A DNA stretch of 64,000 nucleotides from Promethearchaeota archaeon. Lineage in GTDB: Archaea > Asgardarchaeota > Lokiarchaeia > Sigyniarchaeales > SOKP01. The stretch lies in NCBI GenBank assembly GCA_019058365.1, contig JAHPZE010000018.1, positions 1 through 64,000 of the forward strand. Reading direction: 5' to 3'. How positions within the stretch are numbered: the first letter of the stretch is position 1; each line of letters opens with the position of its first letter. Below are positions 21,063 to 64,000 of this stretch, piece by piece. The notes beneath the pieces were generated by a model. The model was not told the origin of the DNA. It saw nothing but the letters and a program-made list of their open reading frames with translations, and did not search any database. A program made the translations under genes and the position numbers.

Positions 21063-21893
21063 TTAAATAGTTGGATATATCTTTGTCCATTTATTTTGTT
21101 GCATAAGAATAACCGAATTATTCATTAGTTTTATTACTTTTTTTCTATTTACTCCTTTTAATATTGGATGTTTATCTACACTATCATAGATTTGCATTCC
21201 TTTTTTCAAGAAATCAATTCCCAATAGAAAAAAATTTTTCATACCTTTATCGAGAGCGTTAATATGTCTATTACCAAAAATCTTATAAGTCATAGCTTCA
21301 AGCTGATAAGATTTAAATGGTTTTTTATTAATGGCATTCCATTTTTTTAAAAGTCTAATTAGTTTTGTAGCACGACCATCATTTCTCTGATTTAGATCAC
21401 TTAATTTTTTTTCATCTAACTCTGGATTTATAATGATAATTTTTTGATTTTCAGGTATTTTGTAATATCCTTTTTCTAAGTTAATAGCAGCTAAGCAGTC
21501 TAATTCGATGTCATTGTTAAAAATTCCTGGAATTGCATGAAAGTAAGGTGGCTTACGAGCAATTTTGAAGGGTTTATAAGATTTTTCTAACTCTATTAAT
21601 CTATTTTTAAAATAATTTAATAAATTATTTTCTTGATAATGCCCAATAAAATATACATCTACATCAAAATAATTTTTAATACTAGTATATCGTTTGAATC
21701 CTCCACAAAAACGATAATTATAACAATCTGGTACATGTTCTCTAAACTTTTCGAATATTTTTCTAACTGCATTTTTAATATGTTTCTGTTTTTGAGGTGA
21801 AATTTGAATTTTACTAACAATTTGTTCTAAAAACTCATTAGGTTTCATTATATTCCTCTTATTTATTTTATTTGAATGGTTGAATTTTAACAT
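21063..21893 (-). CDS. SMODS / CD-NTase / OAS-like nucleotidyltransferase; probable start 21848
   Basis: GGFKRYTSIKNYFDVDV (G[GS]..DxD), third Asp in IELDCLAA, NP, LIRLLKKWN, FKSYQLE. Confidence 0.75.
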   Translation of the reverse strand: MLKFNHSNKINKRNIMKPNEFLEQIVSKIQISPQKQKHIKNAVRKIFEKFREHVPDCYNYRFCGGFKRYTSIKNYFDVDVYFIGHYQENNLLNYFKNRLIELEKSYKPFKIARKPPYFHAIPGIFNNDIELDCLAAINLEKGYYKIPENQKIIIINPELDEKKLSDLNQRNDGRATKLIRLLKKWNAINKKPFKSYQLEAMTYKIFGNRHINALDKGMKNFFLLGIDFLKKGMQIYDSVDKHPILKGVNRKKVIKLMNNSVILMQQNKWTKIYPTI

Positions 21894-37770: not shown

Positions 37771-37821
37771 TGTTTATGAAAATATATATTAATAAGATAA
37801 TTAAATGAGAGGGAATATTTT

Positions 37822-39990
37822 ATGGCAAAAAGACCAAGAATTAGAAGAAGGGTGAATGAAAGAAGGGTAGTTTTACCCATGAATCCACTCCAGTTAAGAC
37901 CTTCACAATTTATTACTACTTATGGTGTAGGTGCTCTTGTTGATGGACGTCAGGGGTCATCAATTATTTTGGAGTTTGAAAAATCAGAATTATTCCCTTC
38001 AACTAAACCTGATTTGGGAACAGATGAATTTATCTGTTATGTGGTTGCATTACCAGGAGCATCCCGATTATCAAAAGTTTTAGAAAATAAAAACGCAGAG
38101 CGTAAGGAAATCGGCCTATTCAGAATGATTACAAATTCTGATTTAAATGTTGAAGACAGATTTGAAATATATAAAACACTACGTTTCCCTGAATATTCTC
38201 TATGCAATAAGCACGGGAATACACAAATTATTTACCATCGCCATTATCCCAGAGATTTTGAAAAAGGAATATTCGGGATTTGCCCTAAATGTCTAGCTGA
38301 TCCTGAAAGAAACACTCAGAATTATCAAAGTGATCAAGAGGTTATTCGCTTCATCCAAATTTGCAAAAATGGCCATTTAAATGATGTGGATTGGAATTAC
38401 GAGGTCCATAGAAAAAAAATTCAGGGAACTACGGATAGACCATGTAAATTTACTCATCTAGAATGGATCGAGGAGGGGTCTGAATTGCAATATGTAAAGA
38501 TAAAGTGTCCTCACTGTCATGAAAGTATCAATTTAAAACAACTTAAAAATAGAAAAATAAGATGTAGAAGAGGAATGCCATGGAAGGGAAAGGAGACAAC
38601 AATACAAGGAAGGTCCCGAATATCTGAAGATCATTTTCCTTGCGATGAATATGTCCAAATTATCCAGCGAAATGCCTCAAATGTCTTCATTTCTCAATTA
38701 ATCACTTCAATTTCTTTACCAAAGGAAGCCAATGCATTTTATCGCACTCTAAATTATAAAATTATTATTAATGAGATGTACAATAATTTAATAATTGACT
38801 TCTCTACGCTTTTCCACTTTTATGAAACTCATCAAGCAGAGGAAACCATTAAACAAAATCCTGGCTTTGGTGACTCTTTTGAAATTCTAAAAAAAATAAG
38901 AACAATGGGAGCACAGGAAATTAGTAAAGCTGAAGATATTATCTCTTATTTCATTAATGATGTATTGAAAGCTAGTGGTACTTTTGATGAGATGGACCTA
39001 AGAAGAGAAGAGTTTAGAGCATTTAAAACTGGAGAATCAGAAAGTAGTCTAAAAATTGACCCAAATTTAGTAATTGAAGATCCTATTGAAGTTGATTATC
39101 AATGGATGGGAACAATCCCAATTACATTTAGAGTTACCCCAATACCAAAACTAGAGGCTATTCTTGTTCAAAAAGGTTTTCAACGGATTGCCAGACCACC
39201 AAAATCTAAAGAAGAAAGACATGAAACTGATATTTCACATGCTACAACAAGGAGAACTCCCTATATTGATGTTAATGGACATCATTGGTACCTATCAGAA
39301 AAATTACAAGGGGAGGGAATATTTATTACTTTAAAAAATCCAAAAATCTTAGGTTTTTCAGACGAAAATAGTAAAAAATGGAAATATATGGAAGAATTAG
39401 TAAATCTATTCCCCCAATACTATAAAACGGAGGGTGAAGAAAATGGAGGTGGATCTGAAGATGATAAAGCTCCTCTCAATAATAAACTTACTAGCGATGA
39501 TTCTGGGGAAGTTTCTAAAGAATCAATAGAGGATGCTGCATATGCTTACTCATTTTTCGGTAGAAATTTTGAAGCTTTTGCAAATCCGTTAGGAACATGG
39601 TGGCATACTTTGGCACATCGATTAATACTCGCTCTATCACTAGATTGTGGATATTCGAGTGCAGCTCTACGAGAAAGGTTATACATCGATGGAGAAGAAG
39701 GTGGAGTGCTAATCTTCGCAACACAGGCTGGAGAGGATGGTACTCTAGGAGGACTTATTTCACAAGCTCAAGAATACAGATTTAAAGAAATTCTCGAACT
39801 TGCTCTATCCAATATTAATAACTGTTCAAATGATCCTAATTGTCTTGAAAGTAATATCGATGATAATCTATTTGGGGCCCGAGCCCCCAATGGAGCAGCA
39901 TGCTATGCATGTCTTTTTCTATCTGAGACTTCTTGTGAATTTGGTAACATTGGACTTGATAGAAAATTACTCATAAATAATCCAAGTTAA
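37822..39990 (+). CDS. drmB: DISARM DrmB-like (DUF1998)
   Basis: RPSQFITTYGVGALVD, C.NGHL.D, GEGIF, HTLAH.L, CGYSSAALRERLY, GTLGGL, CSNDPNC..NGAACYACLFLSETSCE.GN..LDR. Confidence 0.92.
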   Translation: MAKRPRIRRRVNERRVVLPMNPLQLRPSQFITTYGVGALVDGRQGSSIILEFEKSELFPSTKPDLGTDEFICYVVALPGASRLSKVLENKNAERKEIGLFRMITNSDLNVEDRFEIYKTLRFPEYSLCNKHGNTQIIYHRHYPRDFEKGIFGICPKCLADPERNTQNYQSDQEVIRFIQICKNGHLNDVDWNYEVHRKKIQGTTDRPCKFTHLEWIEEGSELQYVKIKCPHCHESINLKQLKNRKIRCRRGMPWKGKETTIQGRSRISEDHFPCDEYVQIIQRNASNVFISQLITSISLPKEANAFYRTLNYKIIINEMYNNLIIDFSTLFHFYETHQAEETIKQNPGFGDSFEILKKIRTMGAQEISKAEDIISYFINDVLKASGTFDEMDLRREEFRAFKTGESESSLKIDPNLVIEDPIEVDYQWMGTIPITFRVTPIPKLEAILVQKGFQRIARPPKSKEERHETDISHATTRRTPYIDVNGHHWYLSEKLQGEGIFITLKNPKILGFSDENSKKWKYMEELVNLFPQYYKTEGEENGGGSEDDKAPLNNKLTSDDSGEVSKESIEDAAYAYSFFGRNFEAFANPLGTWWHTLAHRLILALSLDCGYSSAALRERLYIDGEEGGVLIFATQAGEDGTLGGLISQAQEYRFKEILELALSNINNCSNDPNCLESNIDDNLFGARAPNGAACYACLFLSETSCEFGNIGLDRKLLINNPS

Positions 39991-45860: not shown

Positions 45861-48065
45861 TTACACAAAGTTTTGAATTACCTGTTTCAGCTGTTCTTTA
45901 TCAATTGTTGAATTTGATAGTATCCAACTAAAAATCTTTTCCATTAATATTACCATCCTATCTACTGAGTGAAAAATATCATTTGGAATTAGATTGACAA
46001 GATCGGAGATATTCTGAGATTTGTTGTTCATATAAAGCTTTTTAGCGTCCTTTAAATCACCATCGATAACCTCATACTCATTAATGAGTTCTATATTTTT
46101 ACTAGGTGTTTTAAACCCTTTTTTTTCAACAATTTCTTTTGATTTTATCTTTTCTAATTCTTCTTGTTGTTCTGCTAGTCTTTTCTTTTCAGCTTCAATT
46201 AGATCTCTTTGTTTTCTTAATCTTTCTTCTTCTTCTCTAAGGATTTCCTCTTGTTTTCTCTTCTCCTCTAAGAATTTCTTTTTCTCATCAATAATTTCTT
46301 TCTTTTGTTCATATATTCTCTTTATCCTAATTTCCTCAGCTATTTTCTTCTTTTCCTCATTCCTCTTTATGATTTGTTTATTTTTAGTTATTATCTCATC
46401 GACTTTCCGTACAAATTGTTCAATATTTCTAGAGAATTCCTTTATCGTTTTATCAAAATCACCTGATTTTGGGCCTGTTTTTAAAGTTTCCTTTGAAGCA
46501 GTTTTTAAATTATTGAAAAACAGCTTTATTTCATCTAATTCATTCTCTTCTTCTACTGATAGAATTTCACTTGATTCTAAGTCTAATTTATATTTCTTCA
46601 ATATGTCATCAAATTTTTCTAAAACATCCATCCAACATTTAATTAAACCAATAAAATTGTTATCATTAGATGGGTCTTTATTAAATTCTTCTTTTGCAGA
46701 CTTATAAATAATTGAAGTGTTTATTTGAATGCTAAATTTTTCTAATTCTTTCTCCAAACCCTCATATAATTCTTCATAATGATTTTGATATCTTTTTGCA
46801 GCCTGTGCCTTTTTCCTTTGCCTTTCGCCGGCTTCTGCCACTTCAACTAACCAGTTGGCAATCTCTTCTCTCACTTTTTTCCAATAATCATTTGAAATTA
46901 TAGAATCTCGACTGCTTTTGGGATTTAGATGTTCAGAGAAGAGATAAATTTCTCCCCACATATTATCAAGGGGATGGCTTTTTAATGATCTCTTGTCAGT
47001 TTTCGCCCATTCCCAAACATCATTAGAGTTATATATTAGAACATTATATAATCTGACTATTATTCCTCTGAAATAGTAGTCAGAAAATTGAGGGGCTGCG
47101 ATTTTCTCTGTTGAACCCCTAAACACAGCCCATCCAGCACCAACTAACTCATTATTAATCTTAAAATCTTTTGCGAGAAAAAAGTATTTTGGGGACAAAA
47201 TGTTGTCTTTTGGTATTGGTTTTTTTATCATAATATTTTTAGTCTGCTTCAAATCAGGAAGATTTCTGTAATGAACCTGTATTTCGTTATAATTATAGTT
47301 CAATGGAATGAATATTTCATCATTAACCTTTATTTTACCAAACTTTTTTCCACTTAAAATGGAATATATATTCTCCTTTAGTAATTCTTTTCCCTCTTCA
47401 TCCTCATTTAGATTATAATCAGTGATAGAAAGATTATTTAACCCATCTTCAAAATCCACTGGCACTACTCTAGATAATTTAAAAATAAATTTCGGGTCGA
47501 GCATTTCCCTGAATTTTTTAGGCGTTATTTCATGTAATGTTATAATAGTTCCATGATATTTCTTTTCTTCTTCATCTTTAGTATCGACTTCTTTCTGGAA
47601 AGATATTATTACATCACTGATATATTTTTTACTTGGATCCTTTAAATCCTCCATCCATTGCCATATTGGAATTCTTCTAATATGCCAATATTCTTCATCT
47701 TTTTTTTTTGACCGAATAATTATATCTTTACATATTTTACCTGCAGAGTATATACCTATCCCAATTTCACCTATAGGAGGAAAGTTTGTTTTTTTATCTT
47801 TAGTTTTAGGACTAACCATTATATCCAAACATTCATTAATTTCATTTTTATCCATACCGATTCCAGTATCCATGATCATTAAATCTCGCTCATCATAATC
47901 TATATAGAGATCAATTTTGGTACTTTTAGCATCTATTGAATTTGATATATATTCCCTCAAAACATACTCACAATTATCATATAATTCTGATGTAAATGCA
48001 TCTAAAATTCTTTTTCCAATTTGAGTATCTTTATAAGGTATTTCTTCTCCTTCTTTTATCCCCAT
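45861..48065 (-). CDS. GHKL (HATPase, MORC/Hsp90-like) ATPase with C-terminal coiled coil
   Basis: LREYISNSIDA, IMDTGIGM, IGEIGIG, HGTIITL, S5-like region ending P.SSRD. Confidence 0.85.
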   Translation of the reverse strand: MGIKEGEEIPYKDTQIGKRILDAFTSELYDNCEYVLREYISNSIDAKSTKIDLYIDYDERDLMIMDTGIGMDKNEINECLDIMVSPKTKDKKTNFPPIGEIGIGIYSAGKICKDIIIRSKKKDEEYWHIRRIPIWQWMEDLKDPSKKYISDVIISFQKEVDTKDEEEKKYHGTIITLHEITPKKFREMLDPKFIFKLSRVVPVDFEDGLNNLSITDYNLNEDEEGKELLKENIYSILSGKKFGKIKVNDEIFIPLNYNYNEIQVHYRNLPDLKQTKNIMIKKPIPKDNILSPKYFFLAKDFKINNELVGAGWAVFRGSTEKIAAPQFSDYYFRGIIVRLYNVLIYNSNDVWEWAKTDKRSLKSHPLDNMWGEIYLFSEHLNPKSSRDSIISNDYWKKVREEIANWLVEVAEAGERQRKKAQAAKRYQNHYEELYEGLEKELEKFSIQINTSIIYKSAKEEFNKDPSNDNNFIGLIKCWMDVLEKFDDILKKYKLDLESSEILSVEEENELDEIKLFFNNLKTASKETLKTGPKSGDFDKTIKEFSRNIEQFVRKVDEIITKNKQIIKRNEEKKKIAEEIRIKRIYEQKKEIIDEKKKFLEEKRKQEEILREEEERLRKQRDLIEAEKKRLAEQQEELEKIKSKEIVEKKGFKTPSKNIELINEYEVIDGDLKDAKKLYMNNKSQNISDLVNLIPNDIFHSVDRMVILMEKIFSWILSNSTIDKEQLKQVIQNFV

Positions 48066-48623: not shown

Positions 48624-49922
48624 TTAATTATTAAAGGGCTGAAGGTCTTTATTTCCTAGATTGACTCTTCTTTTATTAATTTGATTATTAATATCTCTAT
48701 TATTAAGTATATCAATGAAATTCTTGAGTTTATTATTACTCCCTAAACCCAACATCTTTCGAACACATTCTGCAATTGCCTGAGCTAAAAGGGGGGGAAC
48801 TGAATTTCCTACTTGCTGTACTTGGCAACAAGAGAGCCTTCTTCGACTTCCTCCAGTGGTCGGAGTGCCATAAAACACATAGCTGTCAGGATAACTCTGT
48901 ATTCTAGCCATTTCTCTTATTGTAATTATTCTGTTAAGGGAATAGTGTATAAAATCTTCATTACACGAGGTAATAGTTCTGGTGGGTTTTCTAGCATACA
49001 TCCTTTGTACGGAGCTACGCTTAGTTCTATAATCTTCAGGTATATCTTCCATAGAATGACCTTGTTTAAACTGAGAAAACCTTTTCCGGGTTGTTAATGA
49101 ATGTCTTGTTGTAACATGATTATAAAGTCTATTTTTTTTCCACTGGAAATTTTCCTGAAAAGGACCATTGGGAGTTTTACTATACAACGTTGGATTCTCT
49201 TCATTATTTTTATATGCTATATCATCTAATGCTTCAAAAGCTGTTACCTTCCTCTTTACGTATGGTACTACATCATATTTTTGATTTTCCCTATTAATAA
49301 AATTCAAAATATCACTTTTACGTGTTTGATGTATTTTTGGAAAATAGATTTTTTCACATGATTTCGACCCAATAATAATAAATCTTTCACGATTTTGAGG
49401 AACTCCATAATCTGCCGAGTTTAATAATTCGAAACCGTATCTATATCCTAAAGATGTTATAGTCTTAAAAATAGTGTTTAATGTGTCATTATATTTTTTC
49501 ATTAAGAGGCCTGGTACATTTTCGAATACGAATATTTCCGGTTTTATTTCTTCTATCAATCTAAAAAATTCAAATAATAAATTATTTCTCGGATCCTGCT
49601 TATTGCGTTTTCCTCTCAAGGAAAACCCTTGACAAGGTGGACCCCCAATTATAACGTCAATATTTTCTTTTCTCTTAAATCTCTTCGCAATTCTCATTAG
49701 GATTGCATCTCCTTTGAGCGCTCGTATGTCCTCATTTAAAATTAAAAGCTTTTTTTTTAAATTAGCTCTATTTAATTCATAAGTTTTTAGGGGATCAGGG
49801 TGAAAATCAACAGCACAGACTCCCTGAAATTCTGCCTCTTCAAAACCGAGAGACATACCCCCTGCTCCACAAAAAAGATCTATAAAAGTTGGCTTCTCAA
49901 TATTAGAATCATTAATACCCAT
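48624..49922 (-). CDS. DNA (cytosine-5)-methyltransferase (DrmMII-like position)
   Basis: DLFCGAGG, GGPPCQGFS, ENVPGL, QNRERF, REMARIQSYPD, QVGNSVPPLLA. Confidence 0.95.
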   Translation of the reverse strand: MGINDSNIEKPTFIDLFCGAGGMSLGFEEAEFQGVCAVDFHPDPLKTYELNRANLKKKLLILNEDIRALKGDAILMRIAKRFKRKENIDVIIGGPPCQGFSLRGKRNKQDPRNNLLFEFFRLIEEIKPEIFVFENVPGLLMKKYNDTLNTIFKTITSLGYRYGFELLNSADYGVPQNRERFIIIGSKSCEKIYFPKIHQTRKSDILNFINRENQKYDVVPYVKRKVTAFEALDDIAYKNNEENPTLYSKTPNGPFQENFQWKKNRLYNHVTTRHSLTTRKRFSQFKQGHSMEDIPEDYRTKRSSVQRMYARKPTRTITSCNEDFIHYSLNRIITIREMARIQSYPDSYVFYGTPTTGGSRRRLSCCQVQQVGNSVPPLLAQAIAECVRKMLGLGSNNKLKNFIDILNNRDINNQINKRRVNLGNKDLQPFNN

Positions 49923-50913: not shown

Positions 50914-52824
50914 TCAATATTTATATTTAATTATGCTAGGCAGGGATATAATGTTGATATCTTCCATATTCCTAAATTTCCGGGTAAGAGATTCTTCAAA
51001 TGTTGTTATAATAAGTTGATTTACAAATCCTTTTTTATAAACATCGACAAGATAATCAACAATATTAATACGATTTTCTAAATTTAAATGCTCCAAGGGT
51101 TCATCAAAAATTAAGAATGGTATTTTTGTATACATTTTTAATAATACTGTTTTAATTAAAATTAACAATACCATTTTTTCTCCACCACTTATATTATCAA
51201 ACGATATTTTCTGTCTACCTTTCCTAAAAAAGGGTAAATATTTGTTATCAAAATATAATTCCCTATTCTCAAAAGGAAAAAATAATTTCCAAATATTTTT
51301 AATTTCATCAATTAAATCCTTTAAATTAATATTTCTTTGTTTACTAATAATCTCATCAATAGCTCTTTGTGTAATCTCAGTAATTAACTTACCTTTGATA
51401 TTTTTTTTATAATCTTGTTCAATTTGGAGCTTATCTTTGATTTCTTCAGCCATTTCTAATCTAGTAATTAATTCTTCTATTTCCCTTAATTTATTTTTAT
51501 ATTTCTCTTCCTTTTCCTCAATTGATTTACATTCTTTAAGAAGATCATTCTTTACTTTTTCAAAATCATCTTTTTGTGAGTTACGATATTGTAAATCTTC
51601 ATAATTCAGATCTTTGATTGATTTTATTAAATCATATAAATTTGAAATGAAATTGAATTTATCTTTTAACTTATTTTTTAAATCAATTAAAAAGTTTAAT
51701 TCTCCTTTTAAATCTGCTAATTCTTTATTCAAAATATTAGTTTGATTTAATATTTCTTGATTAATTTGTAAAAACTCATTTTTAGATAGAATTTTTTGAC
51801 AGATTGGGCAATTTAGATTTGGTTGCTCTCTAAAATTAAATTCTAAATTTTCAATTATCATTTTAACTCTATCTTTATCTTTTATTCTGAGTTCTTTTTC
51901 ATATAATTTTTCTTCAATTGAATTAATCTTGACCTTGTTTTCATCCAATTCCCTTGTTATGTTAATCCTTATCAAATCAAGGTTTTTTTTTTCTGATATA
52001 ACCTCTTTTATGTTGATTTCTTTAATATTTAGAGTATAGAAGATATCTTTATTAACGTCAAAGTAATTTTGAACTTTCTGACTTAAAAATTTGTATTCAT
52101 TATAATAACTAGATAATTCAGCAATTTTCTTCTCATTTTTAACCAATTCAGCTTCTTTTGATTTCAATTGTTCTTTTATTATATTAAGCTCTAATTTTTT
52201 TTCTTTCTGTTCTTCTTTAAGTTGAATTAAATCAAATTTTTCTTTTTTTAATTCAATATCTTTTAAAATTTTTAAATAATCTTCATTTTTTTTCTGATTT
52301 CTTTTAAAATTATTGTTTACTTCAGAAATAATTTTCTTAAATTCACTAGTTTTCCCTATTCCGATAATTGTCTCCAAATAATTGACTAATTTTTTTGAAT
52401 TTAACTGAAGAAATTCATAAACTTCACCTTCACTAGAAAAAATTATATTTTCAAAAAATACTTGGCTCGAGTCAAAGATATCTTCTAAATATCTAAGAAT
52501 CTCGTCTTTTGATTCAATTTTTTGTCCAGATTGATTTTTAATTAATCTTGAATCATATTTACCGTTAAAATTCCGAATAATTTCAAAATTTTCGTTATGG
52601 TCCTCTAATTTTAGTTTAACTTCAGTATTTCCTTTACTCCCAATTTTTTTGTACCCTTTGATATTTTTTGTTCTTACTCGCCCCAATAAACCAAAAACTA
52701 GGGCTTCTAGGAGAGAGGTTTTTCCAATTCCGTTATGACCTATAATGAAATTAACACCTTTTTCAAATCGCAGTTCTAAGGAATCATAGCATTTCCAATT
52801 CTTTAATGACAATTTATTAATCAT
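50914..52824 (-). CDS. Rad50/SbcC-like SMC-family ATPase
   Basis: GHNGIGKTS Walker A, coiled coil with CPIC zinc hook, ISGGEK signature, LIFDEP Walker B. Confidence 0.9.
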   Translation of the reverse strand: MINKLSLKNWKCYDSLELRFEKGVNFIIGHNGIGKTSLLEALVFGLLGRVRTKNIKGYKKIGSKGNTEVKLKLEDHNENFEIIRNFNGKYDSRLIKNQSGQKIESKDEILRYLEDIFDSSQVFFENIIFSSEGEVYEFLQLNSKKLVNYLETIIGIGKTSEFKKIISEVNNNFKRNQKKNEDYLKILKDIELKKEKFDLIQLKEEQKEKKLELNIIKEQLKSKEAELVKNEKKIAELSSYYNEYKFLSQKVQNYFDVNKDIFYTLNIKEINIKEVISEKKNLDLIRINITRELDENKVKINSIEEKLYEKELRIKDKDRVKMIIENLEFNFREQPNLNCPICQKILSKNEFLQINQEILNQTNILNKELADLKGELNFLIDLKNKLKDKFNFISNLYDLIKSIKDLNYEDLQYRNSQKDDFEKVKNDLLKECKSIEEKEEKYKNKLREIEELITRLEMAEEIKDKLQIEQDYKKNIKGKLITEITQRAIDEIISKQRNINLKDLIDEIKNIWKLFFPFENRELYFDNKYLPFFRKGRQKISFDNISGGEKMVLLILIKTVLLKMYTKIPFLIFDEPLEHLNLENRINIVDYLVDVYKKGFVNQLIITTFEESLTRKFRNMEDINIISLPSIIKYKY

Positions 52825-54496: not shown

Positions 54497-54511
54497 TTCG
54501 TGAAATAACCG
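54497..54511 (+). repeat. Site A: arm + core half-site
   Basis: TTCGTGAAA-TAACCG. Confidence 0.8.
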
Positions 54512-54637
54512 CATTAATCATAAAAGATTTTTACTTATATAATCAGAATCTTTATACATTTTTGTAATATCCTTTATTGAAGTCCCCTTTCCCCATGAAT
54601 TAAAGTTTATATTGAATACTTTTTTTAATAACAAGGT

Positions 54638-55657
54638 ATGCTTTTATTATCAATTCTATTTCTTATATTAGGATTTTTTGGGTTATATTTTGGTGCTAAG
54701 TTTGTCATAATTAGCCTTGAAAATATTGCAGATCGCTTAAATATTAGTCATATAATGGTAGGGCTAACAATTTTATCGATTGGGACTAGCTTACCTGAAA
54801 TTGCTGTTAGCATAATGGGGGGTATTGATAAGATTTTGGGTATTGATCCTTACATTGATGGAATAGTTATAGGAAATAAAGTTGGTTCTTTTTTGACTCA
54901 AATCACTTTAATTATTGGAATTTTAGCAGTAAGCCAACCGATTTTCGTTAGTAAATGGGAATTGAGAAGAGAAGGACCTATGCTTTTTATTTCTATATTG
55001 ATTTTTCTTTTTTTCTCTTTGGATGGAATTCTTACTCAATTTGAGGCACTCCTAATGATAATAATATATCTTATTTATCTAATTTTTGTAATTTGGAGTG
55101 AGAAACGTTTACAAAAAATTAAAGTAGATTCTAATTATATTGAAAAAGAACGTTTAGATGCTGTAAGTTTTGAACCAGTTAAGAGTCCTCGTAAAAAATC
55201 ATCAACACTTAGAGATATAGGTATTTTTCTTTTTGGTCTTAGTATATTAATAATTGCAGCAGAGTCCACATTACTTTCAGCGCATGATCTATCAAGAGAA
55301 TTTCACATTCCTGAAAATGTAATTGGTATATTAATTGTTGGATTTGGCACAAGTTTACCGGAACTTGTTGCTGACTTAACCGCTATTAGGAGAGGATCAT
55401 TCGGAATCGCAGTAGGGGATATATTAGGTTCCAATATATGTGATATCTTATTAGCCACAGGATCAGGCGCAATTCTAATTAATTTTAATGTTCCCCTGAT
55501 AATTCTGGTTTTTGATATGCCCGTTCTATTATTGGCGTTAATTTTACTTATTTATTTCTTATGGAGTAAGAAAATACTTAAAAGATGGGAAGGAGCTTTA
55601 TTAATCGGATTTTATGGCGTTTATGCAATTTTAAAATTAGTAATGTTTCAAATTTAA
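54638..55657 (+). CDS. Calcium/sodium antiporter (CaCA, YrbG-like)
   Basis: Two alpha repeats GTSLPE...GN/GSN; about 10 TM helices. Confidence 0.93.
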   Translation: MLLLSILFLILGFFGLYFGAKFVIISLENIADRLNISHIMVGLTILSIGTSLPEIAVSIMGGIDKILGIDPYIDGIVIGNKVGSFLTQITLIIGILAVSQPIFVSKWELRREGPMLFISILIFLFFSLDGILTQFEALLMIIIYLIYLIFVIWSEKRLQKIKVDSNYIEKERLDAVSFEPVKSPRKKSSTLRDIGIFLFGLSILIIAAESTLLSAHDLSREFHIPENVIGILIVGFGTSLPELVADLTAIRRGSFGIAVGDILGSNICDILLATGSGAILINFNVPLIILVFDMPVLLLALILLIYFLWSKKILKRWEGALLIGFYGVYAILKLVMFQI

Positions 55658-55763
55658 TCAACACCATTTTTTTTTAACGATATAAGAAAAAGATCAAAAA
55701 AGTTAAGGCAATTATTCCTCATTTTCATCAATTTCTTTGTTAGCTTCTTAAATTAAAAAATTG

Positions 55764-55778
55764 TTCGTGAAACGGTTA
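55764..55778 (+). repeat. Site B: arm + inverted core half-site
   Basis: TTCGTGAAA-CGGTTA; about 50 bp around it match the reverse complement of site G. Confidence 0.85.
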
Positions 55779-55966
55779 TAAACTAAAAAGCTAATCTTAA
55801 AGGATTTGACTATTGTGTTAAAAATCCTTATTTTTTTAAATTGATTTTAAGACTTCCGATAAATGTTGATAAATCAAAATTTAATTGGAGTAAAAATTAA
55901 TTAACATCTCTCTTTATAAAAGACTTAAATGAAACGTTTTTTATTTGTGAAAAAAGAGTAACAATT

Positions 55967-56629
55967 ATGCAAAATAAAGAATTGGATAAGATATCAAATA
56001 AACCGAATATCAACGCAACAAGGTTAGGAGTATCATCACTCGGAAGCCTCGGGGGATTGATTAGTATCGAGCATGGCATTTTTGAGACGGCTCAGGGGAA
56101 TACCCCCACATCTGGAATAATAATAAATGCAATAGCTCCAGGACATTGGTATTGGAAAGAAGGAGGAGAACTTGCTATGACAATTATTCCGAATTTTTTA
56201 ATTACCGGAATAGTTGCTATAATCATTGGTATTATCGTAATAATTTGGTCAATTAGATTTGTACAAGAAAGATATGGAGCGCTGGGGTTGTTTACTCTTA
56301 CCGTATTAACCTTATTATTCGGAGGAGGGATTGCTTTTTTTATTATTGGGATTATAATCTCTATTATTGCATTACAAATCAATAAATCTCATACATGGTG
56401 GGATATTCATCTTTCAAATAATGTAAAGAAGTATTGTACCAAATTTTGGCTTCCTTTATTTAGCATTACAATTATAATACTTGTATTTTTAGTTTTAGGA
56501 GGGATGTTAGGTGTATGGTTCTTAGAGCCAAATATTGCTACAATTTTACTGACCAATGTTGGCTTAATATCAATTGGACTAATTATCTTTACAATCATCT
56601 TTGGTTTTATACATGATATTAAGAAATAA
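55967..56629 (+). CDS. Hypothetical integral membrane protein (about 6 TM)
   Basis: EHGIFE..QGN, AMTIIPNFLITG, LLFGGG and hydrophobic helices. Confidence 0.75.
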   Translation: MQNKELDKISNKPNINATRLGVSSLGSLGGLISIEHGIFETAQGNTPTSGIIINAIAPGHWYWKEGGELAMTIIPNFLITGIVAIIIGIIVIIWSIRFVQERYGALGLFTLTVLTLLFGGGIAFFIIGIIISIIALQINKSHTWWDIHLSNNVKKYCTKFWLPLFSITIIILVFLVLGGMLGVWFLEPNIATILLTNVGLISIGLIIFTIIFGFIHDIKK

Positions 56630-56656
56630 ATCCAAAATTTAATTTTATTAAATTAT

Positions 56657-56671
56657 ATCGTAAAATAACCG
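56657..56671 (+). repeat. Site C: arm + core half-site
   Basis: ATCGTAAAA-TAACCG followed by AATAATATAATTCAA (similar to the site F flank). Confidence 0.8.
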
Positions 56672-56809
56672 AATAATATAATTCAATTATTAAAAACTTA
56701 ACTTGAATCTACATTTTATTTATTAATTTTAATTGATAATAATTCTTTAAGGAGCTTGAATTTATTACCCTAATAATTTATGTGAATATTGAAAAATTAG
56801 AAAATAAGA

Positions 56810-57115
56810 ATGAATATAATGAAGAAAAATAAAGATGAAATTCTCAATACGCTTAAAAATATAAAAAATGATATTAATCAAAGATTTCGAGTAAAAACAA
56901 TTGGATTATTTGGTTCTTTTGTTAATAATAGGCAAAAAAATACAAGTGATATTGATTTTTTAGTAGAGTTTGAAGAGGATGCAGATCTATTTCATCTTAT
57001 TGGCCTTTCACATTATTTAGAAGAGATTTTTCACACAAGAGTGGATGTTATTTCGAAACCAACTCTAAAAGAAGATTTAAAACAGCATATCCTTCAAGAG
57101 GTTATATATGAATAA
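56810..57115 (+). CDS. MNT (minimal nucleotidyltransferase) antitoxin
   Basis: GLFGSF......SDIDFLVEF, VDVI. Confidence 0.92.
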   Translation: MNIMKKNKDEILNTLKNIKNDINQRFRVKTIGLFGSFVNNRQKNTSDIDFLVEFEEDADLFHLIGLSHYLEEIFHTRVDVISKPTLKEDLKQHILQEVIYE

Positions 57116-57446
57116 AAATTTACCTATCTATTTGAAAGATATAAAGACAGCTATTATTAGTATCGAAAAATTTATTGAAGGATTGGATTTTGAACAATTT
57201 AAATTAGATGATAAAACTTCAAGTGCCGTAATTCGTAAATTTGAAATTATTGGAGAAGCTACAAAAAATGTTCCTGATGCTATTAGAAAGCAATATCCTC
57301 AAATTCCGTGGAAAGATATCACGGGAATGCGAGATAAGTTGATTCATGCTTATTCTGAAGTTGATTTAAAATTGGTTTGGACAACAATCCATCAAAGATT
57401 ACCAAATCTTAAATCTATTATTGAAAAGTTGATTGAAAAAGGATAA
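57108..57446 (+). CDS. HEPN (DUF86) RNase toxin of an MNT-HEPN TA pair
   Basis: AVIRKFEIIGEA, IPWKDITGMRDKLIHAY (RxxxxH); overlaps the MNT gene. Confidence 0.92.
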   Translation: MNKNLPIYLKDIKTAIISIEKFIEGLDFEQFKLDDKTSSAVIRKFEIIGEATKNVPDAIRKQYPQIPWKDITGMRDKLIHAYSEVDLKLVWTTIHQRLPNLKSIIEKLIEKG

Positions 57447-57521
57447 ATAGTGTATTCTCAAATTTCTAAAATATTTTATGTTTAAGGGATATTATTGAGA
57501 TGTATTCCAATATTATGTTTA

Positions 57522-57536
57522 TTCGCGAAACGGTTA
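57522..57536 (+). repeat. Site D: arm + inverted core half-site
   Basis: TTCGCGAAA-CGGTTA. Confidence 0.8.
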
Positions 57537-57751
57537 TTGCCCAAAAAAGTATAAAATTCATACTATTCTTGAAATCATGTATGGAAAAGGAAATTCAGAG
57601 CTTGTAAGAAACAATTTAATGTTGATATCCTTTAAAATAATTGGTACTTTGTTCATTCTCACTTCTTTTAATCCTAATATTTGAAAGTCGATTTTAACTT
57701 AATATTTACACTTTAGTTAAATATATATTATTTAAATTTTTTGTTATTTTC

Positions 57752-60103
57752 ATGAGTATTCTTTTTGATTTTTCATTAGATTTTGATAAAATTGAAGACT
57801 TTTTAGAAGAATCACATTATGAAGAAGCCATTGAAAGATCCTTTAAAATATTAGAAAAAGCATTAGAATTTTTGTATAATGAAGGTTTTACTAAATTGAA
57901 ATTGGATACTCAAATTCAAATTCTTAATGTTCTAAAAGATAATTATTCAGGTAAGAAATTTTATGATTTGCCTATAGGTGAAAAATTAAAAATATTTGAT
58001 GAATATAAATTTCTCTCATATTTAGATATAAATCTAGATAAAGAAGTAAACCCTAAAACACTTTTAAGATTAAATACATTAAGAGTAGATTCTACTCATC
58101 AAAAAAGAAAGATGAGTAAAGGTAATGCTTATTATAGTTATTCTGTTATCCTAAGATTTCTTGAAAAAATTGGGTATAGTTCATTATTCACTCCTGAGAA
58201 AAGTGAAGAAATGAAGAGTGAAATTAAAAAATCTATGAAAATAGATACTTTTATTCCGGAAAATCTACCCGCACGTGATTATATTGAATTTATAGGAAGA
58301 GAAAAGGAAATTAATAATATAATTAATTCACTTTTACATGAAAAAGTACATGTTCTATCAATAGATGGTATTGGGGGTGTAGGTAAGTCATCTTTAGCAT
58401 TAGAAGTAGCTTACAAATTGAAAAAAGATAAAATATTTGATGCAATAATATGGGTTACAGCTAAACAGAGTCGGCTTACTTATAAAGGCATTGAAGAAAT
58501 GGAATATACACTTGGAAATTTAGAAGATTTATTTAATGAAATACTTAAAGTTTTTGACGCAGAAGATCTTTTAAAACTTGGGAATATAGACACAAAAGAG
58601 AGGAAAGTACTCGATATTTTAAAAGAAAATCATTGTCTTTTAATAGTTGATAATTTGGAAACTATTAATGATGAAAATTTAAAAAATTTTTTAATCGATT
58701 TAAGGTTTCCAATTGAAAGCAAAGTTTTAATAACAAGTCGTAAACGATTAGGGCAAGTAGAATATGTAGTCTATCTGGAAAAATTTACTCTTGAAGATAC
58801 AAGTAAATATATAAATTCTCAATTAAAAGCTCGTGATTTTAAAAGAGGTTGTTCCGAAAATTTGATAAATGATATCCATATAAAAACGGGTGGTATACCC
58901 TTAGCAATAAAAGTGTTGATACCATGGATTATCGAAGGAAAGTTAAAGGATAGAATCGAAATTGATATTGATAAGGAAACAGATATTTTAAATTTTTGTT
59001 TTGATACCGTATATAATAAATTTTTAAGTAAAGATGCTCAAAGATTATTGTGTATATTATCTATTGCTCCAACAGAAATTTCAGAAGCTGCTTTAAGGTT
59101 TATTTCAGGATTAGATGATGAAAGCTATAATCAAGCTTTAGGAGCCTTATTGACATATTCTTTGATTAGTATTGGATTAAAAGAGAAATCGGAAGATCAT
59201 TTTTATATGCTTCCCTTGACTCAAGATTTTGGTAAAAGAGAAGCAGAAAAAAATTATCCTGATCTTAAGGAATATATTCATAAAACTTATTTAAAATTTC
59301 TAGAATTGAGTAAAAGTGAAAAGGAATCTGGCAAAAGAGTAATGGCTATAAATAAAGCGGAGGAAGCAAAGAGATTATCATCCTTAGGTGATATTGAGAA
59401 AGCCTCTCAACTCTTCAAAGAAGCTATTGGATATGACTCTAAATGTGATTATGTCCTATACTTATATGCCATATTTTGTAGAGAAAAGCAAGATTTTGGA
59501 CAAGGCAGAACATTAATTGAGAAAGCTATTAGAATCAATGAAAAAAATCCCCTATATTGGTCTGAGTATGCTACAAATTTAGAATTATACGGAGATTTTA
59601 AAAAAGCAGAAAGAATTCTTGAAAAAGCAGTAATTAAAATAAAAAAAGATAGGTATCTGATCTTAAAGTTAATATTATTAAAATCTAAATTACAGAAGAA
59701 TGAAGATGTAATAAAAACTGCTAGAGAAAATATAATTGAAAATTATCAAACGAAAAAAGACAAGTTCATTAACACATTATTGACAATAGCAATATTAGAA
59801 GGGCATTGGAGAAAAGCTTCAAAATCTATAAAGTCAGGTCGGTATGAAGAGGCAATTAGTATTCTATTAGGAGGTTTAAGTGAATTTATGGATTTTTCGC
59901 AGAAGAAATTAATATTTCCTAATAATGGGAAATTATTATGGGAAATTAAAAAAACCTACCATAAATTAGGAGACTTATCAACAATTTTAAGAAATAATGA
60001 AAAGGCAAAAGAGTATTATAGGAAATCAATTTATAAAATTGCTCTTTTTGAGGATAGAAAGAAACATAATAGAATCATTGAAAGCAAGCTATCAAAAATT
60101 TAA
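57752..60103 (+). CDS. STAND/NB-ARC NTPase with N-terminal HEPN-like domain and C-terminal TPRs (NLR/Avs-like)
   Basis: LNTLRVDSTH (RxxxxH); FIGREKE, GIGGVGKS, IIWV, LLIVDNLE, VLITSR, GGIPLAI; TPR-like helices. Confidence 0.85.
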   Translation: MSILFDFSLDFDKIEDFLEESHYEEAIERSFKILEKALEFLYNEGFTKLKLDTQIQILNVLKDNYSGKKFYDLPIGEKLKIFDEYKFLSYLDINLDKEVNPKTLLRLNTLRVDSTHQKRKMSKGNAYYSYSVILRFLEKIGYSSLFTPEKSEEMKSEIKKSMKIDTFIPENLPARDYIEFIGREKEINNIINSLLHEKVHVLSIDGIGGVGKSSLALEVAYKLKKDKIFDAIIWVTAKQSRLTYKGIEEMEYTLGNLEDLFNEILKVFDAEDLLKLGNIDTKERKVLDILKENHCLLIVDNLETINDENLKNFLIDLRFPIESKVLITSRKRLGQVEYVVYLEKFTLEDTSKYINSQLKARDFKRGCSENLINDIHIKTGGIPLAIKVLIPWIIEGKLKDRIEIDIDKETDILNFCFDTVYNKFLSKDAQRLLCILSIAPTEISEAALRFISGLDDESYNQALGALLTYSLISIGLKEKSEDHFYMLPLTQDFGKREAEKNYPDLKEYIHKTYLKFLELSKSEKESGKRVMAINKAEEAKRLSSLGDIEKASQLFKEAIGYDSKCDYVLYLYAIFCREKQDFGQGRTLIEKAIRINEKNPLYWSEYATNLELYGDFKKAERILEKAVIKIKKDRYLILKLILLKSKLQKNEDVIKTARENIIENYQTKKDKFINTLLTIAILEGHWRKASKSIKSGRYEEAISILLGGLSEFMDFSQKKLIFPNNGKLLWEIKKTYHKLGDLSTILRNNEKAKEYYRKSIYKIALFEDRKKHNRIIESKLSKI

Positions 60104-60116
60104 ATCTTAATCAATA

Positions 60117-60144
60117 ATTTCGTAAAATAACCGTTTCACGAAAA
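60117..60144. repeat. Site E: complete 11-6-11 imperfect palindrome (dif/Xer-like geometry)
   Basis: ATTTCGTAAAA-TAACCG-TTTCACGAAAA, between two convergent genes. Confidence 0.85.
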
Positions 60145-60191
60145 AATTTCACTTATTTATTCCTTTTTGGAATATACAAAAATAGATTCTA

Positions 60192-61586
60192 TTATAAATT
60201 TTTCACAATCTCTTTAACGTTCTTATTGATAATTTCAAATTTGTTAATTAAATCTTGATTTTCTTTATTCAGGTAAACCAAGTATTTAATATTCTTAAAA
60301 GGATAAAGATCTTTAAAATATGTTCCATGCCATTCATAAAATAATTGAGGCTGTTCATTTTCTTGTTGTATCCAAATAGATTTCATCTCCTGTTCCTTTA
60401 TTTCTTTTACTTTTTCCTGATCCAATCCTATTGATGGATAAAAGATTGATTCATATTTGGTAAACTTATTTTTGGGAATATCCAAATGTATCTCACTATT
60501 GAACTCTTTTTTTAATTCTCCGATTAATTTAATGATCTTATAATCAGCTAATTCAATTATTCCCATCTGCTGTTTAGTTAAACATTGATAATTAAATATA
60601 TCATAATTTTTTTCACGAAGAATTATTGATTTCAAATTTCGATTCAAACTATTATTTTCAATGGAATTTTTATCTTTTATTTCTTTATATTTATTTAGAA
60701 ATACATTCATTAAAAACCAATCAGTTAATTCATATAATTTTGCATGATCTTCCCTATTTTGCAATATTTCATTTAGTTCAGTTTCATTATTAAAACTCGG
60801 ATAATCCTTATCTGTTATAAAAGAGTTTGCTATTTTTTTCAAAATAAAATTGAAATAGGAAATTGTTTTATGAGTATATAAACGATCATATAAAGAAAAT
60901 CGAGCAATTAAGAAGTTTTCGATAGATCTTGAAGCTTTTTCATTAATTACAAGTTTTTCTTGATTAAATATTTGAAAATTACTTATTAAATAATCAAAAT
61001 CAATGATACCAAATTTGACCCCTGAAAAATATGAATCTCTTAATAAATAATCAAGTCTATCAGCATCTAATTCCCAATTTATAATTTTATTTAATATTGG
61101 ATTATCTGCAATATCGTTTCCCTCAATAAGATTACATATTAAATTAATATCATAATTTTCGCTTGTATCAATAATATCTTTTAAATATGAATTTTTTATT
61201 AGATACACTCCAAATTCTTCATGAGAGATTTTAAAAAATGAAGGAAGATCTTCCCAATTTTCATCTTCTTCATTGAATTCAAGAGCATGTGAAAACGGAA
61301 AATGACCAATATCATGTAATAACGCAGCCATTTTTAGATTATTTAAGTAATATGAGCTCATTATGTCTTCATTTTGCTTTTGTAGAATAACTCCAATTTT
61401 ATCCGTAATATGAAAGACTCCTAAAGAATGTGAAAATCTATTATGGTTTACAGTAGGATAGACATATTCAGCTAGACTTAATTGTCTAATATGTCTTAAT
61501 CTTTGAAAAATAGGTGTATCCACAATGATAGATTCAATTTCATTTAATTCAATTAGTCCATAAATCGGATCATAGATTCTTTTCAA
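60192..61586 (-). CDS. HD-domain phosphohydrolase, YwfO/SAMHD1-like dNTP triphosphohydrolase family
   Basis: DPIYG, FQRLRHIRQL, HNRFSHSLGV, LLHDIGHFPFSH, DADRLDYLLRD, R..LY..LYTHK. Confidence 0.92.
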   Translation of the reverse strand: MKRIYDPIYGLIELNEIESIIVDTPIFQRLRHIRQLSLAEYVYPTVNHNRFSHSLGVFHITDKIGVILQKQNEDIMSSYYLNNLKMAALLHDIGHFPFSHALEFNEEDENWEDLPSFFKISHEEFGVYLIKNSYLKDIIDTSENYDINLICNLIEGNDIADNPILNKIINWELDADRLDYLLRDSYFSGVKFGIIDFDYLISNFQIFNQEKLVINEKASRSIENFLIARFSLYDRLYTHKTISYFNFILKKIANSFITDKDYPSFNNETELNEILQNREDHAKLYELTDWFLMNVFLNKYKEIKDKNSIENNSLNRNLKSIILREKNYDIFNYQCLTKQQMGIIELADYKIIKLIGELKKEFNSEIHLDIPKNKFTKYESIFYPSIGLDQEKVKEIKEQEMKSIWIQQENEQPQLFYEWHGTYFKDLYPFKNIKYLVYLNKENQDLINKFEIINKNVKEIVKNL

Positions 61587-61599
61587 TATACATCAAAAA

Positions 61600-62106
61600 C
61601 TAGCTTGATATTAAGCCTACACTTTTTAAATCATTTAAAACTTCATTAAATTTGAATGAATCAAATAATTTTGGTTTATAGATTGATAATTTAAGTCGTA
61701 TTTTATCCATACTCCAATTTTTAAAATATATATCTTCATATAAATATAAGAAACTTGAATAAAATTCAAATTTCTTTTGATCTATCCCCCATTTATCTAA
61801 AAGATTTTTACCCTTTTTTAAAATCTCTTGCTCTTTTTCATTAAATTTATATCTAGATAGTTCTTCTATCTTCTCTTCTGAGATTTTAGAAGCTTTATAA
61901 TATAAATCTGCTAAATAAGGTGAATATGGCCCATATTTATAAAAATTGAATTTTAGTTTTAAGTTTAAACCATACTTTTCTAGGAAATAGAAGATCTTTT
62001 GAATTAAAAATCTTTGATTAAAATCTTTATCTAATTTCTTTAGTTCCTGATTTAATCCTAATTCATTTAGAATTCTTATAAATTTAATAATGTCTTCTTT
62101 AACCAT
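61600..62106 (-). CDS. YwgA/SocA(DUF4065)-like partner protein
   Basis: RFLIQKIFYFL...LKFNFYKYGPYSPYLAD; 13 bp upstream of the HD gene. Confidence 0.7.
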   Translation of the reverse strand: MVKEDIIKFIRILNELGLNQELKKLDKDFNQRFLIQKIFYFLEKYGLNLKLKFNFYKYGPYSPYLADLYYKASKISEEKIEELSRYKFNEKEQEILKKGKNLLDKWGIDQKKFEFYSSFLYLYEDIYFKNWSMDKIRLKLSIYKPKLFDSFKFNEVLNDLKSVGLISS

Positions 62107-62467
62107 TTTATTCTGGAAATGAATCTTTAATTATTCAAAATACTATTTATATGTATGTTCTTTAGATATATATATTTTCAGTTATTTACATCTTAAGAGT
62201 CTGGTACTTTTCAGGTTTAGATTTTATGAACAAAAATAAAGAGATTTTCCTATTAAATGCCTTCTTAAGATTTTTCAAGTTTTTTTAAATATCATCACGA
62301 ATAGAAATCATTTTTGAATTCATACGATCAACCATTTAATTAATAAATATATATTTATATCGTAAAGAATTAATGACATTTTTTATTTAATGAAGATATT
62401 TTGACATCATATATCACCAGATATATCGCCAATTCAAGCTAACACTTTCTTTTTTTGAATTAAAATT

Positions 62468-62482
62468 CGGTTATTTCACGAT
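62468..62482 (-). repeat. Site F: arm + core half-site on the minus strand
   Basis: CGGTTA-TTTCACGAT = reverse complement ATCGTGAAA-TAACCG, followed by AATTTTAATTCAA. Confidence 0.8.
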
Positions 62483-62605
62483 CATCAATTAAAGCTCATC
62501 TAACAACGTCTTCTCCAGAATCTTAATGACCTAAGAATCATTTCATTAAAGACTCAGCTCTTATTTTTCATTAATTAGATATTTTAAGGTTAGCTTTTAG
62601 TTCTG

Positions 62606-62620
62606 TAACCGTTTCACGAA
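62606..62620 (-). repeat. Site G: arm + inverted core half-site on the minus strand
   Basis: TAACCG-TTTCACGAA = reverse complement TTCGTGAAA-CGGTTA, followed by CAGAACTAAAAGCTAACCTTAAA. Confidence 0.85.
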
Positions 62621-62785: not shown

Positions 62786-64000
62786 TTATATATTAATTTT
62801 TAAAATTTTAAGAGTAAAAAGTTCGATGGGATATTTTGATGCTTGGAGAGATGCTTTTAGTTTTTGATCATAGCTATTGCAGATTATAATCCCTCTTACA
62901 GGAAATTGCTCTGAGAGATTATTATCAACCCAATAAAGATATCTTTGGATTTGACCCACCACTTTGTCGGAAGCTCTCCCTTTTTTAATTTCTATTATTA
63001 CATAATTATCTTTTTTATCCTTACATAAAATATCGATTGTGCCCACTTCATTTGTATCATATTGATTGTTTATAAACTGTAATCCTTCTTCTACTTCATG
63101 TAAGTTAGAGATTACATATTTTTCAATATCTTTTTCTAAAAATCCATTATTCTTTATTTTAAGTTCTGAGAAAGTATACTTTTGTTTCATTCCTTCCCAA
63201 TCGAGAGGAAGTAATTTGAGCCTCAAACTCTTTTTAATTTTCTTTTTTTCTTTCTCAATCATAATCTCTACTCCCTTTTCACTCCACTCCTTAAAGCTTT
63301 TGGTAAATTTACCCTTTATATAGGCTTTTTTTCCTAAAGAGATGTATTTATCGACGGTTTTTTTTGGATATCTTAATCCCGACATCTCAACCATCTCACC
63401 GTCATCATTTAGTAATATTTTTTCTAATGCCTGTAAGAATAACTTTAAAATAAAGGAAGGTGTAGTATAATTATACCCTGATGGTGAAATCAAGCACTTG
63501 GGTGTAAGGGAAAAATACAAATGCCAGATTCCTAATTTTACTAAAATATCTGAAAGTTCATTATACCAAAATTTTCTTTTTCCAACTTTCAAGTAGGAAA
63601 ACTCATTGGTAATAGAAAATTTCTCACTTATTTTTTTTAGGTTAAAAAGAAGCATAAATTCTTCATCAAAATGATCCTTGTATGATTGATTACTATAGAA
63701 ATGTCTATTGCATACACAGGTGAGCCCTAAGACAAGATTTTTCCAAGCATAGTGATACGGCATAAATGTCCGTCTCGCAGGACCAAAGTTTTCGCGTTCT
63801 TCCACCCCAAGATACATTAATGCGGTTATCGTTTTAATTATACCTTTTTCTAGAGCGGTTGAATTTGAAAGTGTGCTTACTATAACATTTTTATAATTCT
63901 TAGAACTAAGTTTGGTAAAAATATATTTCATTTCTTGGATTGTGTTCGTATAGTAATATCCATTCCTGGTATCTTGATTAAATTTGGGTTCAAGAATCTT
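62786..64000 (-). CDS. Protein with C-terminal NucS/DUF91-like PD-(D/E)xK endonuclease; 5' end probably lies outside the window
   Basis: LEKDIE, GTIDILCKD..YVIIEIKKG.ASDKVVGQIQRY; the frame stays open from 63931 to the window edge (KILEPKFNQDTRNGYYYTNTIQEM). Confidence 0.8.
   Translation of the reverse strand, partial: KILEPKFNQDTRNGYYYTNTIQEMKYIFTKLSSKNYKNVIVSTLSNSTALEKGIIKTITALMYLGVEERENFGPARRTFMPYHYAWKNLVLGLTCVCNRHFYSNQSYKDHFDEEFMLLFNLKKISEKFSITNEFSYLKVGKRKFWYNELSDILVKLGIWHLYFSLTPKCLISPSGYNYTTPSFILKLFLQALEKILLNDDGEMVEMSGLRYPKKTVDKYISLGKKAYIKGKFTKSFKEWSEKGVEIMIEKEKKKIKKSLRLKLLPLDWEGMKQKYTFSELKIKNNGFLEKDIEKYVISNLHEVEEGLQFINNQYDTNEVGTIDILCKDKKDNYVIIEIKKGRASDKVVGQIQRYLYWVDNNLSEQFPVRGIIICNSYDQKLKASLQASKYPIELFTLKILKINI

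Follow-up and report, generated by a model that had tools for sequence, protein, structure and literature searches.

What is the short motif that recurs between successive gene modules near the right-hand end of a stretch of Asgard archaeal DNA, and how did the modules come to lie there? The stretch analysed here (the window) comprises the first 64,000 nt of contig JAHPZE010000018.1 from a Promethearchaeota archaeon of the Lokiarchaeia (assembly GCA_019058365.1). A first-pass annotation had described seven copies of the motif (sites A to G) and had proposed a tyrosine-recombinase cassette platform with the geometry of dif sites, organised like pdif modules or a shufflon and served by an enzyme acting in trans. 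The source genome (G000; 4.74 Mb in 54 contigs, the window's contig being C41) and its relatives (other G numbers) were therefore compared. The locus is almost certainly an array of cassettes bounded by recombination sites, and our comparison makes it likely that the array is chromosomal, has grown around a dif-type site and is served in trans by XerA, the only Xer recombinase of the host. The platform and the action in trans were thus supported, while the pdif or shufflon type of organisation was not.

All seven sites were found where they had been described. Six are half-sites, each a 9-bp arm followed by a 6-bp core that, read in the direction of the arm, is either TAACCG (T-type) or its complement (C-type). 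Half-sites A (54497-54511, core 54506-54511, T-type), B (55764-55778, C-type), C (56657-56671, T-type) and D (57522-57536, C-type) lie on the plus strand, and F (62468-62482, T-type) and G (62606-62620, C-type) on the minus strand. Site E (60117-60144, core 60128-60133, assigned to no strand) is the sole two-armed site of the array, with inverted arms of about 11 bp flanking an asymmetric 6-bp spacer, as archaeal XerA/dif requires (spacer-length control); we infer that it is the active platform site. In the half-sites the core is intact and one arm is good while the other has degenerated, as in the element sites of integrative mobile elements exploiting Xer (IMEX) of the TLC and gonococcal genetic island (GGI) type. 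Motif searches of the window with up to two mismatches gave 4 and 5 matches against shuffle means of 0.76 and 0.71, and none of 100 shuffles equalled them. As had been reported, all seven sites are intergenic, the MNT-HEPN and YwgA-HD operons have no internal site, core orientation alternates from A through G, and arms and genes converge on E. The next site to the right of the NucS-like gene, for which a CGGTTA core had been predicted, has a B-type core on the plus strand at C41:64442. The weak flank of B resembles the start of the 138-bp linkers described below, and its likeness to the flank of G proved real (about 46 of 53 positions by hand alignment). The arm also resembles the arms of streptococcal difSL in everted order, probably by coincidence (PMC5357621).

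Site A is the left end of the array, since a weight-matrix scan of window positions 1-54400 gave no further array site, and the antiporter module is homologous to G057 and G063 from this point on. To the right the array runs past the window to C41:80907 and probably onward through contig C11. Exact motif matches in the whole genome number 15, all at C41:54-80 kb and C11:22-34 kb, and by the weight matrix C41 has 15 sites and C11 about 14, against a background of 7 matches in 2.3 Mb. A single array of about 30 sites over some 45 kb, spanning both contigs, is likely, because both end in a duplicated MNT-HEPN module toward which the C11 arms point, and because one array in G073 is flanked by orthologues of C11 genes on one side and by orthologues of the C41 defence island on the other. 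Two copies of a vapBC module in G000 are 99.6% identical and have different neighbours, and the linker between F and G has a second copy at C11:25765-25903 (96% identical) with both flanks different. A possible second mini-array was noted at C46:181303-183470, beside an MNT-HEPN pair and a tRNA-Val gene; its half-site (182069) and two-armed site (183453) share a left flank and have different cores.

Evidence that the sites are crossover points came from their flanks. BLAST alignments between arrays had 234 ends, of which 87 fall no more than 15 bp from a site in both partners. When sites were anchored on the core and flanks scored as shared (at least 80%) or different (below 62%), 40 site pairs shared one flank (10 upstream, 30 downstream) and none shared both, the pairs not being independent of one another. 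The arm stays with the upstream flank (identical arms in 80% versus 37%), and variants of the core tend to go with the downstream one, so that the point of exchange lies at the edge between arm and core. The same flank analysis supports the earlier suggestion that each half-site is a hybrid, part two-armed site and part weak partner. The antiporter module between A and B is 89.7% identical over 1283 bp to its counterpart in G057, with both ends at sites; it also occurs in G063 and G056, and its neighbours differ among G000, G057 and G063. Tyrosine recombinases need identical spacers in both partners, and a regulator would not. Recombination is well supported, because flanks are swapped, modules are shared among neighbourhoods, and cores co-vary with the spacer of the centre. 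A junction search of the assembled contigs, which drop rare variants and are uninformative either way, gave neither circles nor a credible joint of excision or inversion at the sites; the joints it returned around F, G and the next site are artefacts of repeats inside a single contig.

Equivalent arrays were found in at least 14 related genomes, and 125 sites were mapped in 15 contigs from 12 genomes, 123 of them intergenic. Nine arrays from three genera (G000, G060, G061, G063, G073, G082, G105, G119 and G036) contain a two-armed centre like E, and in none of the nine was a second centre seen. Throughout the mapped arrays the half-site arms point toward that single centre. Two single-contig relatives had no two-armed site with the array core. 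In G036, and likewise in genus g6, a variant core is common to the centre and all its half-sites. Sites deteriorate weakly the farther they lie from the centre (rho -0.25, p 0.03), and 61.5 kb of intergenic array DNA holds 10 bare cores. The strict alternation of the window does not extend to a rule: among 110 core intervals (37 T-to-C, 36 C-to-T, 22 T-to-T and 15 C-to-C), 73 alternate (66%, p 3e-4; 56% without linkers), and G067 and G113 have runs of T-type cores only. Genes face toward and away from the centre about evenly across arrays, so that their convergence on E is a local feature. As side observations, the variant arrays of genus g6 (L167-L171, L173, L174) have many sites with a partial second arm, with partner sites 89-192 bp away that carry unrelated cores, and three modules of G061 contig C34 (L049-L052) open with the same segment of about 340 bp (97-99% identical) after a T-type site and differ in cargo, a fourth having about 90 bp of it. 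A 26-kb interval on the same contig holds an apparent BREX-type cluster.

Linkers of 134-140 bp that contain no gene make up 25 of the 36 C-to-T intervals, and their interiors belong to several divergent families. The interval between G and F (62468-62611, minus strand; 138 bp), which had been taken for an empty module, is one of these. Linkers were considered as hairpins or RNAs and rejected as such: their folding is no stronger than that of shuffled sequences (mean z -0.37; 1 of 50 below -2), and they have no Rfam match. A promoter scan of the linkers stayed at shuffle level, with models of bacterial-type promoters that are unsuited to archaea.

Which enzyme might act at these sites was investigated next. 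A tyrosine recombinase had been predicted nearby, yet no recombinase homologue was found in the window, the rest of C41, C11 or 13 contigs of relatives. G000 encodes two tyrosine recombinases, a 307-aa XerA beside cdc6 (C7:156988-157908) and a 429-aa integrase on C46. XerA is intact with its catalytic residues kept, and its best PDB match is Pyrococcus abyssi XerA (E 4e-41); the integrase lies in an island of its own, 20 kb from the nearest two-armed site. XerA is present in 117 of 134 family genomes and is the sole PF00589 match in seven array-bearing genomes (G057, G063, G067, G082, G107, G110 and G113), four of them 97-100% complete. The two-armed palindrome is also found at xer genes. In G001 it directly abuts the xer start codon (L175:1466-2460), possibly for autoregulation or as a xer/dif module resembling XerS/difSL, and it precedes the trxB-xerA block in G046, G047, G057, G086 and G044, of which G046, G047 and G044 have only one or two two-armed sites each; in haloarchaea, dif likewise lies upstream of xer (PMC11840125). 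Among families, all 7 that bear the palindrome have a XerA match and none of 17 without a match has the palindrome, although these lineages are not independent. From this distribution and linkage, host XerA quite probably runs the array in trans. In genus g11 (L146-L153), with few or no exact palindromes, XerA is more divergent (72-74% identity to the G000 protein versus 80-84%) and a control gene is equally distant in all, which is suggestive only. G000 has three cdc6/orc1 homologues (C7, C16 and C35), one of which adjoins xerA.

The two-armed form is not confined to the array. G000 has 11 two-armed sites, each with a different asymmetric spacer; they lie between genes, in many cases right behind the 3' end of one, and three of the 11 are between convergent genes; only the TAACCG site carries a large array of half-sites. 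Exact palindromes in G000 number nine at 6-bp spacing and none at spacings of 3-5 and 7-10. The exact palindrome is present in 53 of 53 genomes of the genus and 118 of 134 of the family, with controls near zero and 2-13 copies per genome in the two main genera; a search with three mismatches was at control level. Genome-wide scatter of the motif, named beforehand as a sign of a regulator site, thus holds for the two-armed form with other spacers and for nothing else, which favours several dif sites over a regulator. At one orthologous place, picked out through the gene beside it, one spacer is conserved in 12 of 18 sites, three different ones being distributed over the remainder; columns flanking dispersed sites are about 50% conserved. 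In L092, L094, L103 and L112 the spacer of the orthologous dispersed site is one found in G000 at another locus, a hint that spacers are replaced between sites. Two further roles were tried for the dispersed sites and dropped. As replication termini they show no significant GC-skew step (p 0.10-0.16, in a genome of 54 contigs), and the GATGCG site is not an inversion point, the apparent side-switching of a major facilitator superfamily gene being due to paralogues and no half-sites having been found at the site.

These observations would fit the following mechanism. Every site other than E would be a stored junction, consisting of a good arm, the same core either way round and a non-consensus flank. 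A circular cassette with a one-armed site would integrate at the centre, leave a half-site and regenerate the centre, as TLC and GGI do at dif. Because a single recombinase makes both arms equivalent, core orientation would decide the side on which a cassette lands, with T-type sites going to one side of the centre and C-type sites to the other. Recombination of the centre with a direct half-site would excise a circle, and with an inverted half-site would flip a block across and move the centre; all of these reactions would preserve exactly one centre, matching observation. A common mobile unit would be cargo plus a linker of about 138 bp, giving a circle with both core orientations and accounting for the repeated order C-linker-T-cargo on both sides. 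A linker of that length makes about 13 helical turns and might offer a place for accessory binding. The ten two-armed sites outside the array would also be XerA sites, and, their spacers being private, they should not cross-recombine. The outermost cores are co-oriented, as this model predicts, in G105, G063 and G073, and in G000 if an eroded core at about C11:13019 is counted; in G060 cargo runs to the contig edge. The odds that the centre walks by inversion appear to us evenly balanced. More tentatively, XerA may act on about ten dif sites per chromosome with private spacers, one spacer having become a cross-genus standard for a two-sided cassette library whose active site walks by inversion and whose cargo-plus-linker circles are exchanged between species, an equivalent of the integron driven by a housekeeping enzyme that untangles the chromosome.

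Several points weigh against a XerA-driven array of this kind. The inner arm bases are AAA/TTT, which departs from the TAA-N6-TTA consensus of characterised archaeal dif sites, where the inner TAA/TTA bases are conserved (PMC11840125), and in published Xer/dif systems a chromosome has a single functional dif (PMC8371274). No clear consensus emerged from the weak flanks, so that the model leaves the engagement of a second XerA pair there unexplained, as it does the fixed linker length of 134-140 bp. Array-bearing G073 (88% complete) has no XerA match and three other tyrosine recombinases, and nine XerA-positive families have no exact palindrome. Inversion through the centre was deduced from geometry alone, and the join of C41 to C11 is our own and is not in the assembly.

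Some of these points would suit the same cassette array with another recombinase in place of XerA, either dedicated to it or still unrecognised, whose gene lies elsewhere. The arm does not match the archaeal dif consensus, G000 does have its second, 429-aa enzyme, and G061, G071 and G105 have five PF00589 matches each; we nevertheless consider this unlikely, given the seven array genomes in which XerA is the sole PF00589 match, the linkage of the palindrome to xerA, the lack of a recombinase homologue in every array and flank searched, and the placement of the 429-aa integrase in a distant island of its own. An organisation of the pdif or shufflon type, in which neighbouring inverted half-sites recombine and no centre is special, would account for the above-chance alternation of cores and for toxin-antitoxin and transporter cargo like that of dif modules (PMC6449649). 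However, inverted half-sites recombining with each other would yield a second centre and an armless core, and no array has two centres while bare cores are few; arms do not invert with cores, and alternation drops once linkers are left out. This organisation is accordingly improbable.

Could the motif instead be bound by a transcription factor, a nucleoid protein or a XerA that does not recombine there (like Bacillus XDS), with the modules shuffled otherwise? The dispersal of two-armed copies with different spacers and the copy at the G001 xer start codon would fit, as would the likeness of the arm to a parS half-site in everted order, which is probably a coincidence. Against this, homology breaks at the sites, cores are near invariant within an array and track the spacer of its centre, three of the 11 two-armed sites lie between convergent genes, and one spacer is kept in 12 of 18 orthologous places where flanking columns are about 50% conserved. 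For the array such a reading is very improbable; for the ten dispersed sites only, it is possible. Even slighter is the chance of CTX-phage-type integration from a single-stranded hairpin, in which a linker with inverted cores would fold into a dif-like attP. The CTX attP is a fold of about 150 bp formed by two inverted sites 90 nt apart (PMC5357621), and the linkers do have inverted cores 134-140 bp apart. Their arms, however, are direct repeats that cannot pair, they fold no better than shuffles, and exchange points lie at both linker ends. A dif-type array served in trans by XerA thus remains the reading that we favour.

Among known systems the array is closest to the elements that integrate at dif, and it is neither pdif nor shufflon. 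Like the TLC phage of Vibrio cholerae and the gonococcal genetic island, it appears to rely on host Xer in trans at an 11-6-11 site; the element site is a core with one good arm, and integration leaves a hybrid, regenerates the full site and allows stacking (PMC5357621). As in those elements, no recombinase is encoded within, and the full site persists beside the stacked units. The array differs in its single archaeal recombinase, its occupation of both sides of the centre, its two core orientations, its fixed-length linkers and its dozens of cargo-only modules of 0.6-7 kb; the top 25 cargo families listed include none for replication or transfer. With the archaeal XerA/dif system (PMC2958812, PMC8371274, PMC11840125) it shares inverted 11-6-11 arms, an asymmetric spacer, a single XerA and, in some genomes, proximity to xerA. 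It departs from that system in the number of sites (about 2-13 per genome with different spacers, and 11 in G000 rather than one at the replication terminus), in the AAA/TTT inner bases and in the cassette array at one site.

The R64 shufflon (Rci/sfx) resembles the array in its conserved core, its one conserved and one variable arm and the possibility of inversion, and in the shufflon arm and core invert together. The shufflon has an adjacent recombinase and inverted sites that swap the 3' ends of one gene; the array has no adjacent recombinase, its units are whole operons, the orientations of arm and core are uncoupled, and modules are gained and lost between species. The pdif modules of Acinetobacter plasmids are likewise small accessory modules (toxin-antitoxin, transporters) with dif-like borders, varied contexts and no recombinase in cis, and Acinetobacter has additional chromosomal dif sites (PMC6449649). 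Array modules, too, recur in different contexts bounded by sites. In pdif, however, two distinct arms (XerC and XerD) alternate as C/D and D/C, arm and core invert together, the core varies and there is no centre (PMC6449649), whereas the array has a fixed core and one arm, always polarised to one site. Integrons and CALINs (clusters of attC sites lacking an integrase), including archaeal ones, have a primary site with stored cassettes, distal decay and defence and toxin-antitoxin cargo in common with the array (PMC9668308). They differ from it in having IntI beside attI and attC hairpins: G000 has XerA and one distant integrase, its linkers do not fold (by a folding test), and the array consists of short double-stranded half-sites on two sides of a centre, with genes either way round.

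The cargo in the window was identified mainly through Pfam, which agreed with most of the earlier module assignments. The module between A and B carries a Na/Ca exchanger (54638-55657, plus strand; PF01699, Na_Ca_ex); in G143 and G117 a 339-aa open reading frame holds the position of this module. A 220-aa membrane protein (55967-56629, plus strand) was assigned to no family by Pfam or PADLOC searches. The MNT-HEPN toxin-antitoxin pair (56810-57446, plus strand; 56810-57115 and 57108-57446) matched PF01909 (NTP_transf_2), PF01934 (HepT-like) and PADLOC PDC-S09. A 783-aa NLR/STAND-like protein (57752-60103, plus strand) has NB-ARC and TPR domains by Pfam and no PADLOC match, and its proposed HEPN domain rests solely on an N-terminal RxxxxH motif read from the sequence. 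Beyond E, an HD-domain dNTPase-like gene (60192-61586, minus strand; PF01966, PF19276; weak PADLOC dGTPase match) lies next to a gene called YwgA-like by resemblance (61600-62106, minus strand), which has no Pfam match and a weak PADLOC match to DarG. The distal end of this module holds, by homology, a truncated remnant of a vapB-type antitoxin gene, namely its start with the upstream DNA (62263-62467, minus strand), 78.5% identical over 214 bp to C41:80345-80556 and ending 1 bp from site F, which suggests replacement of cargo inside an older cassette. The NucS-like nuclease (505 aa; 62786-64000 in the window, minus strand, starting at C41:64303) matched Pfam NucS_C and PADLOC PDC-S02.

Array-wide, the predicted families include toxin-antitoxin pairs (MNT-HEPN, PIN), transporters, TPR and LRR proteins, Nmad2, PtuA/Old-like ATPases, McrBC, a methylase and a restriction enzyme, so that the cargo, by predicted family, combines defence genes with accessory genes of a general kind. 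In at least five genomes the array borders on the same variable defence island. In the window it is large, lies to the left of the array (15700-54400) and has no array sites; its translations, read by eye, include a DISARM/Drm-like helicase cluster (32818-39990), a SMODS-like nucleotidyltransferase (21063-21893), an Mrr-like protein, a MORC-like ATPase (45861-48065), a DNA methylase (48624-49922) and an SMC-like gene (50914-52824).

A full-text literature search, with subscription journals mostly outside its coverage, returned no description of such a system; judged from sequence comparison, the array appears to be a variant among Xer-exploiting systems, and as a means of collecting genes it would be new to the literature covered. 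Dispersed sites, each with its private spacer, are at odds with the rule of one dif per chromosome and make chromosome-dimer resolution in archaea without FtsK testable, and a single-protein recombinase with natural orthogonal spacers is a possible tool. The sites delimit the cassettes exactly, which allows candidate defence modules to be picked out directly, among them the NLR-like, HD/YwgA, NucS-like, PtuA/Old-like and McrBC modules. If the proposed reading is true, Asgard archaea would have a host-encoded platform, distinct from integrons, with which to collect and rearrange defence genes.

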